This document shows, one piece after another, positions 1,217 through 37,575 of a stretch of DNA of 64,000 bases. A model generated the notes under the pieces. That model was not told where the DNA came from. It worked only from the letters and a program-made list of their open reading frames with translations, and did no database searches. The first letter of the stretch is position 1; each line of letters begins with the position of its first letter. Made by a program: the position numbers and the translations under genes. Source of the DNA: a virus. Its lineage: Duplodnaviria > Heunggongvirae > Uroviricota > Caudoviricetes. Location of the stretch: the IMG/VR virus record IMGVR_UViG_3300043399_000700, one strand, 5' to 3'.

Positions 1217-1245
1217 TTGACTATAAAATTTTTAACCTGTATAAT
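1217..1245 (+). promoter_or_regulatory. sigma70-type promoter: TTGACT, 17-nt spacer, TGTATAAT
   Basis: -35 TTGACT at 1217-1222 and -10 TATAAT at 1240-1245, with exactly 17 nt between them, just upstream of the 1276 ORF. Confidence 0.6.
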
Positions 1246-3299: not shown

Positions 3300-3308
3300 T
3301 TACACAGG

Positions 3309-3337
3309 TTGACCTAAAATTCGGATTTTGCTATAAT
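3309..3337 (+). promoter_or_regulatory. Early-type sigma70 promoter: TTGACC, 17-nt spacer, TTTGCTATAAT (extended -10)
   Basis: TTGACC 3309-3314 and TATAAT 3332-3337 with a 17-nt spacer. Same architecture as the three promoters at 32870-33443. Confidence 0.7.
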
Positions 3338-3366: not shown

Positions 3367-3897
3367 GTGGCATCACATTTAATGATTGATATTGAGGGTT
3401 TGGCCACAGGCCCAGATGCTACCATTTTAACTATTGCTGCCCAAAGTTTTGATCCGTTTGGTGCGGGTTATTTGGATCGTCATTACTACGGTCGGGTTAC
3501 GACCGAAAGCCAAGAGAACCGAGCGATTGACGAAGGCACAGTAGCTTGGTGGGCTACGCAGCCTGACGAAGCCCGCGAAGAAGCACTAGGCGACGGGCCC
3601 GATCGTGTACCGCTTAAACAAGCATTAGAAGATCTTTATAAAATTGCTTGGCAGCACGATTTTATTTGGGCACAAGGGCCAACATACGATTGTAATATTT
3701 TAGAACACGCATTTAAGTCGTATAATATGGTGCTGCCTTGGAAGTTTTATCGTGTACGTGATAGCAGAACTGTAATTAGTTTATGGCCTGACTGTCCAAA
3801 GCCTCCTACAACTCACCATGCACTCGAGGATGTGCGTAAGCAAATTGATTTGCTACAAAAGACATTAAATCATTTGGGTGTCACAGACATCAGATAA
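3367..3897 (+). CDS. dexA: DnaQ/DEDDh-family 3'-5' exonuclease (T4 DexA-like), GTG start
   Basis: N-terminal MIDIEGLATGPDATILTIAAQSFDP (Exo I-like; compare T4 DexA IIDFET...AVIAFDP). C-terminal HHALEDV (Exo III H-x4-D). Confidence 0.7.
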   Translation: MASHLMIDIEGLATGPDATILTIAAQSFDPFGAGYLDRHYYGRVTTESQENRAIDEGTVAWWATQPDEAREEALGDGPDRVPLKQALEDLYKIAWQHDFIWAQGPTYDCNILEHAFKSYNMVLPWKFYRVRDSRTVISLWPDCPKPPTTHHALEDVRKQIDLLQKTLNHLGVTDIR

Positions 3898-32213: not shown

Positions 32214-32221
32214 TATAAATA
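32214..32221 (+). promoter_or_regulatory. T4-late-promoter-like TATAAATA box
   Basis: Exact TATAAATA octamer in the gap upstream of the structural-like ORF at 32336, but 115 nt from the ATG. Confidence 0.25.
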
Positions 32222-32837: not shown

Positions 32838-32867
32838 AAAACCCCGCCCAAAGCGGGGTTTTTTATT
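32838..32867 (+). terminator. Rho-independent terminator (CCCCGC-CCAAA-GCGGGG then TTTTTTATT)
   Basis: Perfect 6-bp GC stem and T-run. It directly abuts the next promoter and shares the GGTTTTTTATTGG tail with the terminator at 52098. Confidence 0.8.
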
Positions 32868-32869
32868 GG

Positions 32870-32898
32870 TTGACCAATAATTACCATTTTGCTATAAT
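32870..32898 (+). promoter_or_regulatory. Early promoter copy 1: TTGACC, 17-nt spacer, TTTGCTATAAT
   Basis: TTGACC 32870-32875 and TATAAT 32893-32898 with extended -10 TG. Confidence 0.8.
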
Positions 32899-32930
32899 TT
32901 GGTTATAGTAAGTACACAGGAGTTGGCAAA

Positions 32931-33086
32931 ATGAGCAACGGTGAAATATTAGATAAGATTGATTCTACAATCGACGAATTAGATCGTTTAATTAATCAAT
33001 TAACTATTCCAAATAAAAAAGATTTAACTCAGCAATTATATGATTTCTTTGCTGTTGTTGAACAACGTGTAGAAGAAAACTTTTAA
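32931..33086 (+). CDS. Tiny early ORF (51 aa, acidic/helical)
   Basis: AGGAG 9 nt before the ATG. MSNGEILDKIDSTIDELDRLINQL... Not in the ORF track (under 60 aa). Confidence 0.45.
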   Translation: MSNGEILDKIDSTIDELDRLINQLTIPNKKDLTQQLYDFFAVVEQRVEENF

Positions 33087-33087
33087 T

Positions 33088-33198
33088 ATGAATACAATAT
33101 ATTGGATATTATCGGGTCTTAGTATATTGTGTATTATAGGGTTAATTGCCGAATCTATTGCTATAATACGTGAGCACAACAAGACCAAACAAGGTTGA
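33088..33198 (+). CDS. Tiny early membrane ORF (36 aa, single transmembrane segment)
   Basis: MNTIYWILSGLSILCIIGLIAESIAIIREHNKTKQG. Its TGA stop overlaps the next -35 box (GGTTGACCAG). Confidence 0.4.
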   Translation: MNTIYWILSGLSILCIIGLIAESIAIIREHNKTKQG

Positions 33199-33223
33199 CC
33201 AGAAATAGCCATTTTGCTATAAT
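33195..33223 (+). promoter_or_regulatory. Early promoter copy 2: TTGACC, 17-nt spacer, TTTGCTATAAT
   Basis: TTGACC 33195-33200 and TATAAT 33218-33223. Confidence 0.8.
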
Positions 33224-33253
33224 ATGGGTATAGTGAATAACAAGGAGTTGGGA

Positions 33254-33418
33254 ATGAATCAAAGAAATTTAAATCAAGCAATGGATTTGCTTTGGGATCT
33301 TTGGCACGAACTACCCAACGATCACCCTGACTTCGACGAGCTAGATTCTTCATTTGAAGCAGCCTGGAATAACCTACAGCATGTCAACAATACTTTGGAT
33401 TGGAATGGCAACGGTTGA
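33254..33418 (+). CDS. Small early acidic protein (54 aa)
   Basis: AGGAG before the ATG at 33254. MNQRNLNQAMDLLWDLWHELPNDHPDFDELDSSFEAAWNNLQHVNNTLDWNGNG. Its stop again sits in GGTTGACCAG. Confidence 0.5.
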   Translation: MNQRNLNQAMDLLWDLWHELPNDHPDFDELDSSFEAAWNNLQHVNNTLDWNGNG

Positions 33419-33443
33419 CCAGTAATTCTGACTTTGCTATAAT
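33415..33443 (+). promoter_or_regulatory. Early promoter copy 3: TTGACC, 17-nt spacer, CTTTGCTATAAT
   Basis: TTGACC 33415-33420 and TATAAT 33438-33443. Confidence 0.8.
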
Positions 33444-33477
33444 ACTACTATCATAACAAAACAAGGACGGGCTAGAC

Positions 33478-34491
33478 ATGAGTACTGTTAAGATCCTTAA
33501 GGGCACTTATCGTAATCAACCAGTGAACGATGTAACGTTTACATTGGTCAAAGGGTTCCAAACTGGCGCCAAAGGCGGCTATGTTACAGTTGACTCTAAT
33601 GGCTATTTTGGCCCAGAGTTTACTAATGTACGCATCCGTGTTGATGACATCAACGATGTAGAATTTACTACAGAAAGCGTACCTGCTCAAAATTTTGTAG
33701 CACCTGTGGCACACCACGAAACCGACGAAGAAGTTATTGAACGCATTGGTCGTCGTTTTTCAATCCTTGACGACATGACTCGTGCTGCTATTGCTGGCGA
33801 CATTCGTGCAATGATTGTTGTAGGCCCTCCGGGCGTAGGCAAGTCATATGGTGTAGAAGCACAATTGGACCGCGCCGGCTTGTTTGACAACATCAGCGCC
33901 AAGCGTCCGCGCTACGAAGTTATCAAAGGCGCAATGACCCCAATTGGTCTATATGCAACCTTGTACAAGTATTCGGATCCACGCAACGTCTTAGTCTTTG
34001 ATGACTGTGACAGCATTTTGCTTGACGACATTGCCCTTAACATTCTCAAGGCTGCACTAGACTCGGGCAAGAAGCGTAAGATTCACTGGAATTCGGACAG
34101 TTCATTGCTGCGCCGCGAAGGTGTGCCTAACTACTTTGAGTTCAAGGGTTCGGTGATCTTTATTACCAACCTTAAGTTTGACAACCTTAAGTCTAAAAAA
34201 CTGCAAGATCACTTGGATGCGCTGCAAAGCCGTTGTCACTTCTTGGACCTTACACTCAACACCATGCGCGACAAGTTCTTGCGTATCAAGCAAATCCACT
34301 TGCAAGGCGAACTGTTCCGTGATTATAACTTCGAGAAAAACGAACCCGAAGAGATCATGGATTTTATGTACGTTAACCGCGAACGCCTGCGTGAAATGAG
34401 CCTGCGTATGGCACTTAAGATTGCTGACCTTATCAAAGTGTCAGACAATTGGAAGATGCTTGCTGAAAACACTTGCATGAAGGCTGCCTAA
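33478..34491 (+). CDS. AAA+ ATPase (early gene) with a roughly 100-aa N-terminal domain
   Basis: Walker A GPPGVGKS, Walker B VLVFDDCD, sensor-1 FITN, and SR arginine-finger candidates. Confidence 0.7.
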   Translation: MSTVKILKGTYRNQPVNDVTFTLVKGFQTGAKGGYVTVDSNGYFGPEFTNVRIRVDDINDVEFTTESVPAQNFVAPVAHHETDEEVIERIGRRFSILDDMTRAAIAGDIRAMIVVGPPGVGKSYGVEAQLDRAGLFDNISAKRPRYEVIKGAMTPIGLYATLYKYSDPRNVLVFDDCDSILLDDIALNILKAALDSGKKRKIHWNSDSSLLRREGVPNYFEFKGSVIFITNLKFDNLKSKKLQDHLDALQSRCHFLDLTLNTMRDKFLRIKQIHLQGELFRDYNFEKNEPEEIMDFMYVNRERLREMSLRMALKIADLIKVSDNWKMLAENTCMKAA

Positions 34492-34492
34492 C

Positions 34493-34846
34493 ATGGCTGG
34501 TTACGCATTAATTCGCCGAATCAAACACCTAGAAGAACAGTTGGATAAACTGGGTATGCGCTGGGGTGCTAACAAATACGGTATGACAGGCTATGACAAT
34601 GGCGACACACTAACAGTTATTCCCAAGGAAGGTTGCTTGCCGCATTTCGCTCGCGATGCTGAACTGTTTACAGGCACCATTGAGGGCTTGCAACTTTGGC
34701 TACAAGGTATTGATTGGGCCCGGCGTTACGACATTATTCTGGGTTTGCAAACAGAACAACGCCGCGCCCGTGCCGAGCAAAACGAGCACAACAAGCAACT
34801 AATGAAACATCTTAAGGATGAAAAAATAGAGGTAATCAATGATTAG
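34493..34846 (+). CDS. Hypothetical protein
   Basis: 117-aa ORF with a TAATG overlap. Confidence 0.45.
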   Translation: MAGYALIRRIKHLEEQLDKLGMRWGANKYGMTGYDNGDTLTVIPKEGCLPHFARDAELFTGTIEGLQLWLQGIDWARRYDIILGLQTEQRRARAEQNEHNKQLMKHLKDEKIEVIND

Positions 34847-35015
34847 AATTATTCTAGCATTCTTGTTTGTATTTGGTTTGTTTTACTTTGGTATTGATGC
34901 GTTCCGTCATTTGACTGGACGTGAAAAGTGGGATCTAACCAAACTAATCGGTTATAGTTTAATCTGTGCTGTGCTAACTGTAGTTGCCCTTGCTGTTTTT
35001 GTTTACGCATTTTAA
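34839..35015 (+). CDS. Small two-transmembrane-segment protein (58 aa)
   Basis: MIRIILAFLFVFGLFYFGIDAF...LICAVLTVVALAVFVYAF. Not in the ORF track. Confidence 0.4.
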   Translation: MIRIILAFLFVFGLFYFGIDAFRHLTGREKWDLTKLIGYSLICAVLTVVALAVFVYAF

Positions 35016-35024
35016 AGGAAAATC

Positions 35025-35828
35025 ATGAAAAAGAATATCGCTCTTACCCTTGTTGCCGCTGCTGTACTGGCCACAGGCTGTACTCGTATTGAAACTGGTA
35101 CTGTTGGCCTGCGTGTTGATATGAGCAAGCAGGTTCAGCAACAAGAACTTCAAGCAGGTACTTGGAATCAAACTATTGTTGGTGATGTGCTAGTATTCCC
35201 AGTACGCAGCATTCAAGTCGCTTGGAACAACTTGACTCCGCAGACTGCTGATAACTCTACGCTCAAAGACTTTGACGTAGCAATGGTCTATGACATCAAT
35301 CCAACCTCTGTATCGGATATTTGGACTAACCAAAGCCGTAGTTTCCATACTTACGATACCAAGCACAGCGATTGGTACTTGATGCACAACTATATGAGCC
35401 AACTGCTCAACTCAGCAACTGTCAAGGCTGTGCGTAAGTACAATGCTCTAAGCGTAGCAGACAACCGTGGCAACATCGAAGTCGATGTCAAGTCGTTTGT
35501 TGACCAAATGCTTAAAGAAGAAAACTTGGACAAGGCTATTACTGTAAGCCAAGTTCGTGTTGCTAACGCCACACCAGCAGATGATATTGTTGCTGCTGCT
35601 AATGCTGCTGTTCGTGCACAAAGCGATCTAAAGACCAAACAAGTCGAAGTTGAAATCGCCAAGCAAGAAGCACAGCGTATCCAAACGCTAAACGCAAACT
35701 CGCAGGCTATTCCGTATATGCAAGCAATGGCTAATATGGAAATTGCCAAAGCAGTTCGCGAAGGCAAGGTCACTACTATTGTCATTCCAGCAGACTTCAA
35801 GGGTATGCTTAACGTAGGCAAACAGTAA
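35025..35828 (+). CDS. Lipoprotein, possibly SPFH/band-7-like
   Basis: Signal peptide plus lipobox LATGC. The Ala/Gln-rich helical C-terminal region (QVEVEIAKQEAQRIQTLNAN) is reminiscent of SPFH proteins. Confidence 0.4.
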   Translation: MKKNIALTLVAAAVLATGCTRIETGTVGLRVDMSKQVQQQELQAGTWNQTIVGDVLVFPVRSIQVAWNNLTPQTADNSTLKDFDVAMVYDINPTSVSDIWTNQSRSFHTYDTKHSDWYLMHNYMSQLLNSATVKAVRKYNALSVADNRGNIEVDVKSFVDQMLKEENLDKAITVSQVRVANATPADDIVAAANAAVRAQSDLKTKQVEVEIAKQEAQRIQTLNANSQAIPYMQAMANMEIAKAVREGKVTTIVIPADFKGMLNVGKQ

Positions 35829-36094
35829 TGAACGAACGAATCCAAGAACTACACCAGCAAGCAAAAGACTTTATTAACGAAGTATCTGACCGTGACGGCG
35901 TATATCAGGGTAAAGAGTATATGCAGGCAGTTAGAGAAAAGTTTGCCGAGTTGATTGTTCGTGAATGTATTGCAGAGCTGGAAACAAGCAAACGCTGTGA
36001 TCCTTATACAGGCGATTTGTTTACGTGCGAATACAATGATTGCCTCGATGATCAAATTGCAATGTTAAAAGAAGAATTTGGAGTTACACGATGA
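35828..36094 (+). CDS. MNERI(K/Q)E-family small protein, tandem paralog 1
   Basis: MNERIQELHQQAKDF...KFAELIVRECIAELE...EEFGVTR. Confidence 0.5.
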   Translation: MNERIQELHQQAKDFINEVSDRDGVYQGKEYMQAVREKFAELIVRECIAELETSKRCDPYTGDLFTCEYNDCLDDQIAMLKEEFGVTR

Positions 36095-36303
36095 ACGAAC
36101 GAATTAAAGAACTATCAATGCAAGCACACCGATATGCTAACTACCAACAATTAGACCCTACACAGTTTGTGTTGGATATTTTCGAGGAAAAGTTTGTTGA
36201 GTTGCTTGTTCAGGAGTGTGTTGAAACGCTAGGAACATATGAAAATACATGGACTCACGAAGAAAAAATGAATCTATTGAAGAAACATTTCGGAGTTGAA
36301 TGA
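36091..36303 (+). CDS. MNERIKE-family small protein, tandem paralog 2
   Basis: MNERIKELSMQAHRY...KFVELLVQECVETL...HFGVE. Confidence 0.5.
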   Translation: MNERIKELSMQAHRYANYQQLDPTQFVLDIFEEKFVELLVQECVETLGTYENTWTHEEKMNLLKKHFGVE

Positions 36304-36545
36304 TGAACGAACGAATTAAAGAAATCGCCAAACAGGCTAGACTAATCTATCTGTATGACTATGATGCAGATGGACATGCAATGGTTTGCAGTGAGAAAGA
36401 TATCAAAAAGTTCGCCGAGTTGATTGTTCGGGAATGTGCTGACTTTGTAAGTAGCAAAGCAGGTCTTCAAAGTGGTTTAGGTATCAAGACCATGCTCAAA
36501 GTTACAGGCGAACAGCTAAAAGAACACTTCGGAGTTGAAGAATGA
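36300..36545 (+). CDS. MNERIKE-family small protein, tandem paralog 3
   Basis: MMNERIKEIAKQARL...KFAELIVRECADFV...HFGVEE. Confidence 0.5.
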   Translation: MMNERIKEIAKQARLIYLYDYDADGHAMVCSEKDIKKFAELIVRECADFVSSKAGLQSGLGIKTMLKVTGEQLKEHFGVEE

Positions 36546-36811
36546 AACAGCGTGGATTTACCTTAATCGAAGCAGTAGTCATTATATGCATTATAATGAT
36601 CCTGGCTGCGGTTGCTGTGCCTGTGTTCACAGGTAAAATGAGTACTGCTGGTATCACATATGGTGTTAATGGTGTAACCGAAAGCCGCTGCATTGAAGGC
36701 TACAAGTTTGTTATCGGATCAGATGGTAATGCTCGTCAGATTCTAAATGAACTGGGCAAAGGTGTGCGCTGTGATACTGTTATTAACGAACCCTCAATGA
36801 GTAGACCATAA
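36542..36811 (+). CDS. Type IV prepilin/pseudopilin-like protein
   Basis: MKQRG|FTLIEAVVIICIIMILAAVAVPVF is a class-III prepilin leader with the G/F cleavage site, Glu+5 and a hydrophobic alpha1 helix. A C-terminal Cys pair (RCIEG...GVRC) fits the pilin D-region. Confidence 0.65.
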   Translation: MKQRGFTLIEAVVIICIIMILAAVAVPVFTGKMSTAGITYGVNGVTESRCIEGYKFVIGSDGNARQILNELGKGVRCDTVINEPSMSRP

Positions 36812-36993
36812 TGAAACAATTAATCGAAGTAGTACTAGTAATGATTTATAATCTTGCAATTCTAGCAGGCGCAAGTTATCTGTATGTAATGCACGATGTT
36901 AGTGGCTGGATCTTTTTACTGCCATTGATTTTTGCTGCTAGTTGGAACACTAACAAGAAGGACGAAAACGATGACACAGGATCCACTTATTGA
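36811..36993 (+). CDS. Small two-transmembrane-segment protein
   Basis: MKQLIEVVLVMIYNLAILAGASYLYV...WIFLLPLIFAASW. Confidence 0.4.
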   Translation: MKQLIEVVLVMIYNLAILAGASYLYVMHDVSGWIFLLPLIFAASWNTNKKDENDDTGSTY

Positions 36994-37201
36994 GCAACTG
37001 GTAATTGAGCGCATGGGTCAGATGTATCATGACTATGCTCAAGCACTTAAAGACTTAAACGATATCAGATCCGGTCAGACAGTAGTAATCCCTGCTAACA
37101 TGGAACATGCTAAGTTTATGGTTGTTATGGGTCAGCACTACATTAACCAAACACACAAGATAACATTTGACGCATTAACAAAGGAATATCAAAATGGTTG
37201 A
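36971..37201 (+). CDS. Hypothetical protein
   Basis: ATG at 36971 with AGGA upstream. The track start at 36932 lacks a ribosome-binding site. Confidence 0.4.
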   Translation: MTQDPLIEQLVIERMGQMYHDYAQALKDLNDIRSGQTVVIPANMEHAKFMVVMGQHYINQTHKITFDALTKEYQNG

Positions 37202-37397
37202 ACTAGAAAAACTAAAGTTTCGAATTGAAACAGTAGAAGCCGCAATTGCTGCATGTAGGACAGCAGTTACAGTTGAGCGCAAAATGGCCACAGAAAAGCA
37301 TCTAAACGGTCATCTAACTAACGCCCTACAGGAACTAGAAAAGGTAAAGAAGCATGTGGAAGATCTCGTGCACCGCGCTGAAGCACAAGGTAATTGA
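37194..37397 (+). CDS. Small coiled-coil protein
   Basis: 67-aa helical ORF. Confidence 0.4.
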   Translation: MVELEKLKFRIETVEAAIAACRTAVTVERKMATEKHLNGHLTNALQELEKVKKHVEDLVHRAEAQGN

Positions 37398-37519
37398 ACA
37401 TCAATTTGAACTATATGCTGTTATAGTAGCACTTTTTCTACTATCCAGATAGTTATCGATATATACGTTTGTAGTAACCCGAATTGTCATCATAGTCTAG
37501 CTCCTAGATAATTCGGTTT

Positions 37520-37548
37520 GTGGCGTCAGCAATGGCGCCACTTTTTTT
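37520..37548 (+). terminator. Putative rho-independent terminator abutting the next promoter
   Basis: GTGGCG...CGCCAC stem with a 10-nt loop followed by CTTTTTTT. The T-run merges into the TTGACT -35 box. Confidence 0.45.
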
Positions 37549-37575
37549 GACTTTTGCTTCACAAGTGTCTATAAT
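37547..37575 (+). promoter_or_regulatory. sigma70 consensus promoter (TTGACT, 17-nt spacer, TATAAT) 7 nt upstream of the uvsW ATG
   Basis: TTGACT 37547-37552 and TATAAT 37570-37575. The predicted transcription start is at or next to the ATG at 37583. Confidence 0.65.

Follow-up and report, generated by a model that had tools for sequence, protein, structure and literature searches.

Tandem sigma-70-like promoters and variable micro-genes ahead of an ATPase gene in a distant relative of jumbo phage PA5oct

Strong promoters placed in tandem before small ORFan genes are expected in large virulent phages. In phage T7, the early operon is headed by three strong host RNA polymerase promoters, A1, A2 and A3, arranged in tandem over a few hundred bp; no genes lie between them, and they form neither a dispersed repeat family nor a site of gene exchange. 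Gene-shuffling hotspots have been described in T4-like phages, whose promoter-early stem-loops (PeSLs; Arbiol et al. 2010, PMC2839356; Comeau et al. 2014, PMC4122927) were shown experimentally to recombine in RB49/phi1 (PMC2839356), and the morons of lambdoid phages are accessory genes with their own promoter lying between conserved genes (PMC2839356). Here, we analyse a stretch of 64,000 nucleotides from the IMG/VR virus record IMGVR_UViG_3300043399_000700 (hereafter the window), in which three promoters, P1, P2 and P3, alternate with micro-open reading frames (micro-ORFs orf51, orf36 and orf54) and lead into an ATPase gene. We conclude that this region is probably a hyperplastic slot in which cassettes made of a sigma-70-type promoter and micro-genes are shuffled by recombination at the promoter repeats.

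The nearest cultured relative of the window's phage is Pseudomonas phage PA5oct, which depends on the host RNA polymerase and is blocked by rifampicin (Lood et al. 2020, PMC7318152). In PA5oct, 32 predicted promoters of TTGAC/TATAATA consensus coincide with RNA-seq transcript starts (PMC7318152), while the preprint of that study lists 39 predicted promoters. No temporal class is given there for the region of PA5oct that is homologous to the ATPase region (PMC7318152).

A promoter family ahead of the ATPase gene

A first-pass annotation of this DNA had described three near-identical promoters at 32870, 33195 and 33415 with a further copy at 3309, and both the sequence and a pattern search bear this out. 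P1, P2 and P3 all have the format GG-TTGACC-N12-TTTGC-TATAAT, the -35 hexamers starting at the first three of these positions. Written as GGTTGACC-N12-TTTGC-TATAAT, the array copies span 32870-32898, 33195-33223 and 33415-33443, and the fourth copy, of the same format, spans 3309-3337; the 17-nucleotide (nt) spacer ends in TTTGC in all four. The genome-wide motif search that the annotation had suggested was run over the 64 kb with one mismatch allowed and returned 6 sites where 0.47 were expected, all on the + strand, and none of 100 dinucleotide shuffles reached 6. The remaining two sites, at 1217 and 37547, are one-mismatch relatives (TTGACT, without the TG). Thus, the signal is indeed non-random, as had been claimed, but the 12-of-12 match is slightly overstated: a consensus scanner against TTGACA/TATAAT scored the array copies at 11/12, plus a TG extended -10 element. 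All strong copies sit on the coding strand.

The three array copies resemble one another over a 62-nt unit made of GG, -35, spacer, -10, leader and Shine-Dalgarno sequence (SD), with identities of 100, 81 and 66%, the middle value being that of P2 against P1 over the 62 nt. A position weight matrix (PWM) trained on relatives only, the window being left out of training, picked out exactly four GGTTGACC sites at 36-41.5 bits, against a shuffle maximum of 13.6. The sites at 37547 and 1217, which the annotation had counted as relatives, are sigma-70-like as it stated but only marginal on the family PWM (Table 1).

We then examined the family across related phages. An IMG/VR scan with the ATPase yielded 80 loci (65-74% identity), several of them on contigs of 150-340 kb; individual loci are referred to below by an L number. 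In each of the 69 loci with enough upstream sequence, a TTGAC-N17-TATAAT promoter lies 57-74 nt before the ATPase start. Sites within 2 kb upstream of the ATPase number one in 3 loci, two in 44, three in 14, four in 6 and five in 2. Among 221 unique copies, TTGAC and TATAAT are invariant and the 17-nt spacer is strict; the -10 is followed by A, and the -35 is preceded by GG. The profile of these copies further shows T at -17 (68%), T at -15 (58%) and G at -14 (51%), an A-rich proximal spacer (AnAAAT), and a pyrimidine-A step conserved 6-7 nt after the -10 (offset +34/+35), where initiation is expected. The leader, from predicted start to start codon, measures 23-26 nt in 262 copies, and ORFs that come first after a promoter copy have a median of 91 amino acids (aa). 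The exact motif, with 19 specified bases, can be found in at least 120 IMG/VR stretches, many of which belong to contigs of 100-350 kb. The hexamers and their spacing, the TG at -15/-14 and the placement upstream of genes in the genes' orientation are all those of extended -10 sigma-70 promoters. On these sequence features, the copies appear to be housekeeping-sigma, extended -10 promoters belonging to a clade-wide family, at which the host holoenzyme would, by analogy, start transcription at a putative site 6-8 nt past the -10.

Two further features of the promoter copies were recorded. Firstly, across L002-L081 a G two bases before the -35 is associated with a C at -35 position 6 (odds ratio 15), which splits the sites into 87 of GGTTGACC type and 18 of TTTTGACT type; GGTTGACC is a quasi-palindrome (GGT.TG.ACC). 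Secondly, a -10-like hexamer begins 11 nt after the start of the -10 and overlaps the predicted start site in all three array promoters (+ strand; TATAGT at 32904-32909, TATAGT at 33229-33234 and TATCAT at 33449-33454). Matches of at least 5/6 at that offset occur in 24% of the 221 related copies; it is still the most enriched offset, and with so small a share of copies we rejected the second hexamer as a defining feature of the family. It may provide context for the start site, act as a weak promoter that overlaps the main one, or make the polymerase pause in a sigma-dependent manner.

We asked whether such features betray a motif read by a phage-encoded sigma, or with a phage co-factor, which would make these promoters a middle-type or phage-specific class. 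The conserved non-canonical positions (GG, C at -35 position 6, the AnAAAT spacer and the GGT.TG.ACC symmetry), the G(-2)/C(+5) association and the presence of the second -10-like hexamer 11 nt downstream in P1-P3 all speak for it. However, no canonical sigma-70 determinant is missing or out of its usual spacing, so that an extra factor is unnecessary, and PA5oct, with the same consensus, depends on the host RNA polymerase. The G/C association fits two promoter subfamilies related by descent equally, and the second -10-like element is confined to the minority of copies given above. We therefore regard a dedicated phage factor as improbable; that the non-canonical positions or the second hexamer add a phage-specific layer of control, through factor binding or sigma-dependent pausing, is the less likely extension of the adaptor idea set out below.

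Nor does it seem at all plausible that the repeats are protein-binding iterons, or a recombination, replication or packaging signal which merely resembles a promoter. That they are repeated, conserved past the hexamers and tied to rearrangement junctions (see below) would suit such elements, but the copies are spaced 220-325 bp from one another, without exception on the coding strand, each stands at a fixed 23-26 nt plus SD before a start codon, and the columns that never vary are precisely those of the -35 and -10 hexamers, set apart by 17 nt. Rfam gave no family match anywhere in the window.

Hairpins distinguish the copies from one another. Directly before P1 lies a terminator hairpin (32838-32862; free energy -18.3, z-score -4.7 against shuffles), which closes the upstream unit made of a glycosyltransferase-like gene and orf164; a terminator immediately before the first promoter is also present in L039 and L049. 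Between 32862 and 37520 no terminator-like site was found on the + strand, the next + strand terminator being at 37520-37541. The 37547 promoter is fused to the T-run of this preceding terminator, and its hairpin is significant (z -4.0). For P2, P3 and the copies at 3309 and 1217, no significant hairpin was found upstream, in the core or downstream (segment z -1.6 to +1.6, and about 0 for P2). An AT-rich block upstream of the -35 is likewise absent: P1 has the terminator T-run in its place, P2 and P3 are preceded by coding sequence of ordinary composition, and the family profile displays only a weak T enrichment from -11 to -3.

Micro-genes and the exchange of cassettes

The order of micro-ORFs of 51, 36 and 54 aa followed by the ATPase is as first annotated. 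We next considered whether these short ORFs are genes. Codon-usage log-likelihood ratios of +30 for orf51 and +19 to +24 for orf54 are typical of true 50-codon gene segments. Homologues of orf51 are 86-90% identical and those of orf54 94% and 85% identical, with ratios of non-synonymous to synonymous substitution (dN/dS) of 0.07-0.15 for orf51 (from more diverged pairs) and 0.02 for orf54. These values indicate that orf51 and orf54 are real genes under purifying selection. orf36, which appears to be translationally coupled to orf51 (TAATATG), is intact in L086 (35/36 identical) and L085 (~55% identical, still hydrophobic). It is probably a gene too, with less certainty because its dN/dS is ~0.45 and its codon score weak.

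The products offer few clues from homology. orf51 belongs to a small family of ~50-aa proteins (12 representative clusters), and neither Pfam nor PHROGs returned anything for orf51, orf36, orf54, orf117 or orf58. AlphaFold (AF2) models of orf51 and orf54 are acidic two-helix hairpins with predicted local distance difference test (pLDDT) values of 91 and 85, respectively, for which Foldseek against the PDB retrieved generic helical hairpins only, all with E > 0.8. Paralogy of the two is not detectable (hhalign probability 0.2%). Host takeover or anti-defence, which the annotation had named as usual for such loci, is a candidate role for the micro-ORF products. Two other gene calls at the locus were examined. 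The public Joint Genome Institute (JGI) call for orf54 is a 64-aa form (33224-33418, +) whose ATG lies inside the -10 box; since it would start there, upstream of the predicted transcription start, it is probably a mis-call, while the 54-aa form has an SD, lies downstream of the predicted start and is conserved in L082 and L083. A 105-aa ORF on the opposite strand (33036-33353, -) was rejected as a gene: at 0.19 per codon it scores weakly for codon usage, it runs across orf51, orf36 and orf54, three + strand genes that do have support, and it is probably spurious.

The annotation had also drawn attention to two stop codons lying within the next -35 box. The overlap is real: the TGA of orf36 (33196-33198) and that of orf54 (33416-33418) form bases 2-4 of the TTGACC at 33195 and 33415, respectively, and the resulting GGT TGA overlap dictates a C-terminal Gly. 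It is not remarkable, as the TGA within TTGAC closes one reading frame in all 377 promoter copies; the A-rich spacer closes a second frame (TAA or TAG) in 47% of copies, and the third has a stop in 22%. In 88 pairs of neighbouring promoters separated by an ORF, 19 of these ORFs end at the -35 TGA, 22 at a spacer stop located at +8 or +11, and 29 shortly (3-8 nt) before the -35. The chance probability of two out of two ORFs stopping in the -35 is about 1 in 9. Because TTGAC always contains TGA, an ORF entering that frame must stop, and the overlap is a by-product of tight packing against the promoter. A role as a regulatory device was therefore rejected. In L084, a 58-kb contig, the upstream ORF's TGA is inside the -35 at all three promoters of an expanded slot (3941, 4464 and 5522).

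What varies between related phages is the cargo. A tblastn search with orf51, orf36 and orf54 gave no match in the 80 ATPase-linked loci. Given the close homologues found elsewhere, we take this to reflect variable cargo rather than non-coding sequence. Clustering of the ORFs that precede the ATPase in 71 loci gave 133 families, of which 103 have a single member, and at least 20 families of small ORFs, unrelated to one another, stand behind promoters between the orf164-family gene (or an alternative) and the ATPase. The idea of a repeated promoter-plus-small-gene cassette is thus well supported, with a promoter in 69 of 69 relatives and hypervariable cargo, and the ATPase gene appears from these comparisons to anchor the variable slot.

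Several junctions fall at the promoters. L049 and L039, ~87% identical through the region, differ by one ~302-bp unit consisting of an 81-aa ORF with its promoter, leader and SD; the unit is flanked by two ~60-nt promoter-leader repeats, whose 92% identity prevents the junction from being assigned to any one point inside the repeat. L082 is homologous to the window from 33193 (the GG of P2) onwards, with unrelated cargo upstream, while in L083 orf54 has a different promoter spacer and a different downstream gene. Homology to L085 begins at 32870, the first T of the P1 -35, and that to L086 at the terminator. In L084, an orf51 homologue lies behind its own GGTTGACC promoter in a slot syntenic with the 1217 promoter of the window, which is expanded there by three promoter cassettes, one of them holding this homologue. 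Its protein is 86% identical whereas flanking core genes are 38-58% identical, a contrast that points to cassette transfer, not vertical descent. The expanded slot of L084 contains six small ORFs, one with a weak dCMP-deaminase-like match.

We weighed these observations against a simpler account, in which the array is an ordinary tandem block of strong promoters serving expression alone, for high or graded early transcription in the manner of T7 A1/A2/A3, and cargo variation arises from fast divergence and illegitimate indels in a non-essential region, without any involvement of the promoters in recombination. It is a classical arrangement for tandem consensus promoters to head an early operon, similarity within most promoter pairs hardly extends past the consensus, and the breakpoints at promoters in L082 and L085 may be an artefact of the promoter being the sole conserved sequence. 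What this account handles poorly is the L049/L039 indel, which comprises exactly one unit between near-identical repeats, the relocation of orf51 in L084 to a different slot behind a promoter of the same family, which argues for transfer, and the filling of one slot by unrelated families. Thus, we consider expression without promoter-mediated exchange to be unlikely, and favour cassette shuffling. The outcomes of shuffling are visible in the comparison of loci; the mechanism, recombination as for T4-type PeSLs, is proposed by analogy with those systems.

Points that weigh against cassette shuffling need to be set beside this. Related loci are phylogenetically non-independent, so that the stop-pair, promoter-similarity and G/C-association counts and p-values are inflated. 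Promoter-leader similarity outside the hexamers is 0.46 within a genome and 0.385 between genomes, a difference which for the same reason is indicative only. Just 4% of within-genome promoter pairs are at least 75% identical outside the hexamers; with most pairs sharing little beyond the consensus, only short homology patches would be available. Breakpoints at a promoter can arise simply as the promoter is the last conserved element, an effect that could readily account for all cases but the L049/L039 indel and the L084 relocation. The coding statistics of orf36 are weak. Start sites, promoter strength, timing and read-through are all predictions from sequence, and 'sigma-70' denotes the host housekeeping sigma by analogy only. 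Finally, it is equally possible that tandem promoters occlude one another instead of adding up.

Predicted expression of the array and its surroundings

Together, these results suggest the following model. The slot would form the 5' end of a ~4.7-kb transcription unit in a PA5oct-like jumbo myovirus, and each cassette would consist of a ~60-nt module (promoter, ~24-nt leader and SD) followed by one or two ORFan micro-genes. Given the near-consensus promoters and the rifampicin sensitivity of PA5oct, the host RNA polymerase holoenzyme would initiate at P1-P3 upon DNA entry; 'early' timing is thus suggested by the sigma-70 consensus and the host RNA polymerase dependence of PA5oct only. As only P1 has a terminator before it and none lies between the cassettes, transcripts would be nested and co-terminal, orf51 and orf36 being read from P1, orf54 from P1 and P2, and the ATPase and the genes downstream to 37520 from P1, P2 and P3, with dosage rising towards the ATPase and the ~4 kb of small genes that follow it. 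The promoter-leader modules may serve as homology patches for the phage's UvsX-like/gp32-like recombination, by which cassettes would undergo deletion, duplication and replacement and would travel from one promoter-bearing slot to another and from phage to phage. An ORF abutting a promoter would be closed by the TGA of TTGAC or by a TAA or TAG of the A-rich spacer.

More speculatively, and with some doubt on our part, the promoter-leader module may be a universal adaptor of an integron-like cassette exchange network spanning a large clade of uncultured jumbo phages. If so, micro-genes would hop between slots and between phages whose core genes are 40-60% identical, and the module would supply transcription, a translation start and built-in stops for the upstream ORF. 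Whether or not this holds, GGTTGACC-N12-TTTGC-TATAAT followed by a 24-nt leader provides a handle for mining metagenomes for accessory micro-genes, among which candidates for host interaction would be sought, and marks likely immediate-early transcription units in phages not yet grown. For annotation, the gain is that three micro-ORFs are supported and that the 64-aa call should be 54 aa.

Table 1 Features of the array and related promoters in the window.
Feature	Position	Strand	Elements	Remarks
Sigma-70-like promoter	1217..1245	+	TTGACT-N17-TATAAT, no TG	13.1 bits; upstream of gene 1261-2421
Fourth family copy	3307..3337	+		36.1 bits; upstream of exonuclease gene 3367-3897
Intrinsic terminator hairpin	32838..32862	+	AAAACCCCGCCCAAAGCGGGGTTTT then T-run	10 pairs, 6 GC
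Promoter cassette P1	32868..32930	+	GG; -35 TTGACC 32870-32875; TG 32890-32891; -10 TATAAT 32893-32898	41.5 bits; predicted start near A32905; 26-nt leader with GGAG SD
orf51	32931..33086	+		51 aa, acidic, isoelectric point (pI) 4.2
orf36	33088..33198	+		36 aa, single predicted transmembrane (TM) segment; one hydrophobic 19-mer, Kyte-Doolittle (KD) 2.23
Promoter cassette P2	33193..33253	+	GG; -35 TTGACC 33195-33200; TG 33215-33216; -10 TATAAT 33218-33223	41.2 bits; predicted start near A33230; 24-nt leader with AAGGAG SD
orf54	33254..33418	+		54 aa, acidic, pI 4.05
Promoter cassette P3 (ATPase gene promoter)	33413..33477	+	GG before -35; -35 TTGACC 33415-33420; TG 33435-33436; -10 TATAAT 33438-33443	37.8 bits; predicted start near A33450; 28-nt leader with AAGGA SD
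P-loop/AAA-like ATPase	33478..34491	+		337 aa; PHROG 1250 (phrog_1250, E 6e-84)
Rest of predicted transcription unit	34493..37541	+		ends at terminator 37520-37541
Sigma-70-like promoter	37547..37575	+	TTTTGACT octamer	15.9 bits; upstream of helicase gene

The ATPase carries a Walker A motif (GPPGVGKS at 116) and a Walker B-like motif (VLVFDD at 171), and its Pfam AAA match falls just under the cut-off. It is 40% identical to PA5oct gp126 and 37% identical to nrdC.10 of Acinetobacter phage Acj9. PHROG 1250 has no function assigned, the Acj9 member being annotated NrdC.10, and no solved relative was found by sequence.

Downstream of the ATPase, the predicted unit holds orf117, a 58-aa TM ORF, an SPFH/Band-7 lipoprotein, three tandem paralogous small genes, a prepilin-like 89-aa ORF and further small ORFs. 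The lipoprotein gene (35025-35828, +) matches Pfam PF01145 and PHROG 200, and its product has a lipobox-like N-terminus (LATGC). The paralogous genes (35828-36545, +) encode proteins of 88, 70 and 81 aa which begin with MNERI(K/Q)E and end with FGV(E/T); their stops and starts overlap and they have no promoters of their own. They appear to be a local gene-family expansion, unlike the promoter cassettes. The 89-aa ORF (36542-36811, +), inside the ATPase's predicted early operon, begins with MKQRGFTLIEAVV, a type IV prepilin-like leader with the methylation motif (G/FTLIE), followed by a hydrophobic helix; its product would be a phage-encoded pilin-like protein.

Upstream of the array, the T4 late-promoter-like sequence TATAAATA occurs at 32214-32221 (+), in the stretch that separates orf164 from the glycosyltransferase-like gene, 115 nt short of where orf164 starts. 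It is not enriched in the window (2 sites against 5 expected) and so is of no help in defining temporal classes.

The window derives from a jumbo myovirus, uncultured and a distant relative of Pseudomonas phage PA5oct. Among its PHROG matches are a 1107-aa tail sheath, the large terminase, a DnaB-type helicase, NrdAB, a UvsX-like recombinase and a gp32-like single-stranded DNA-binding protein (SSB). Nearly all genes of the window are on one strand, the terminase is 53% identical to that of PA5oct, and no near nucleotide match (~85% identity or more) was found in GenBank phage records, against which a megablast of the locus gave nothing. Two further genes, at 47923-49092 and 54965-55870 (+), gave weak PHROG matches to radical-SAM domain proteins; their region also encodes a DnaB-like helicase and structural proteins.

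Comparison with known promoter-borne gene arrays

The tandem promoters of T7 resemble those described here in their tandem arrangement only. The likeness to morons goes further, as both consist of an accessory gene with its own promoter inserted between conserved genes, but morons have their own terminator and no conserved repeated module as a boundary, whereas the internal cassettes here share one promoter-leader family and have no terminators. With the + strand free of terminator-like sites from 32862 to 37520, the cassettes do not qualify as morons.

PA5oct offers the closest comparison by descent. It uses the same TTGAC/TATAATA consensus (Lood et al. 2020, PMC7318152), and GGTTGACT-N17-TATACT lies 67 nt upstream of gp126, its homologue of the ATPase. 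In contrast to the window, however, the four small ORFs upstream (gp130-127) have no individual promoters at up to one mismatch, no cassette array is annotated at the locus and no role in shuffling is described.

The closest functional parallel is with the PeSLs of T4-type phages. In both, strong sigma-70-like promoter modules are repeated and flank ORFans in hyperplastic regions, and indels or replacements that distinguish relatives have their junctions inside the repeated module, downstream of the -35 and ahead of the ATG. Each cassette comes with expression signals of its own, and UvsX/gp32-type recombination is encoded by the phage in either case. P1, with a GC-rich hairpin directly upstream, resembles a full PeSL. 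There are also differences. The lineage here is that of PA5oct-like jumbo phages, whereas PeSLs belong to the Tevenvirinae, and the -35 is a canonical TTGACC combined with a TG extended -10. A stem-loop accompanies only P1 and the 37547 promoter; P2 and P3 have neither stem-loop nor AT-rich upstream block, because the upstream ORF runs into the -35, and for want of both the array is not a full member of the PeSL class. Without stem-loops at P2 and P3, the cassettes would not be transcriptionally insulated and nested read-through is expected. A further mark of PeSLs, the formation of excised mini-circles during infection, may be predicted for the array by analogy only. Relative to the PeSLs already described, it is this variant without insulating stem-loops that is new. 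On balance, the best reading, by analogy, is that the array works like a PeSL array, which would extend promoter-mediated modular shuffling, so far known only from T4-like phages, to the abundant uncultured PA5oct-like jumbo phages.

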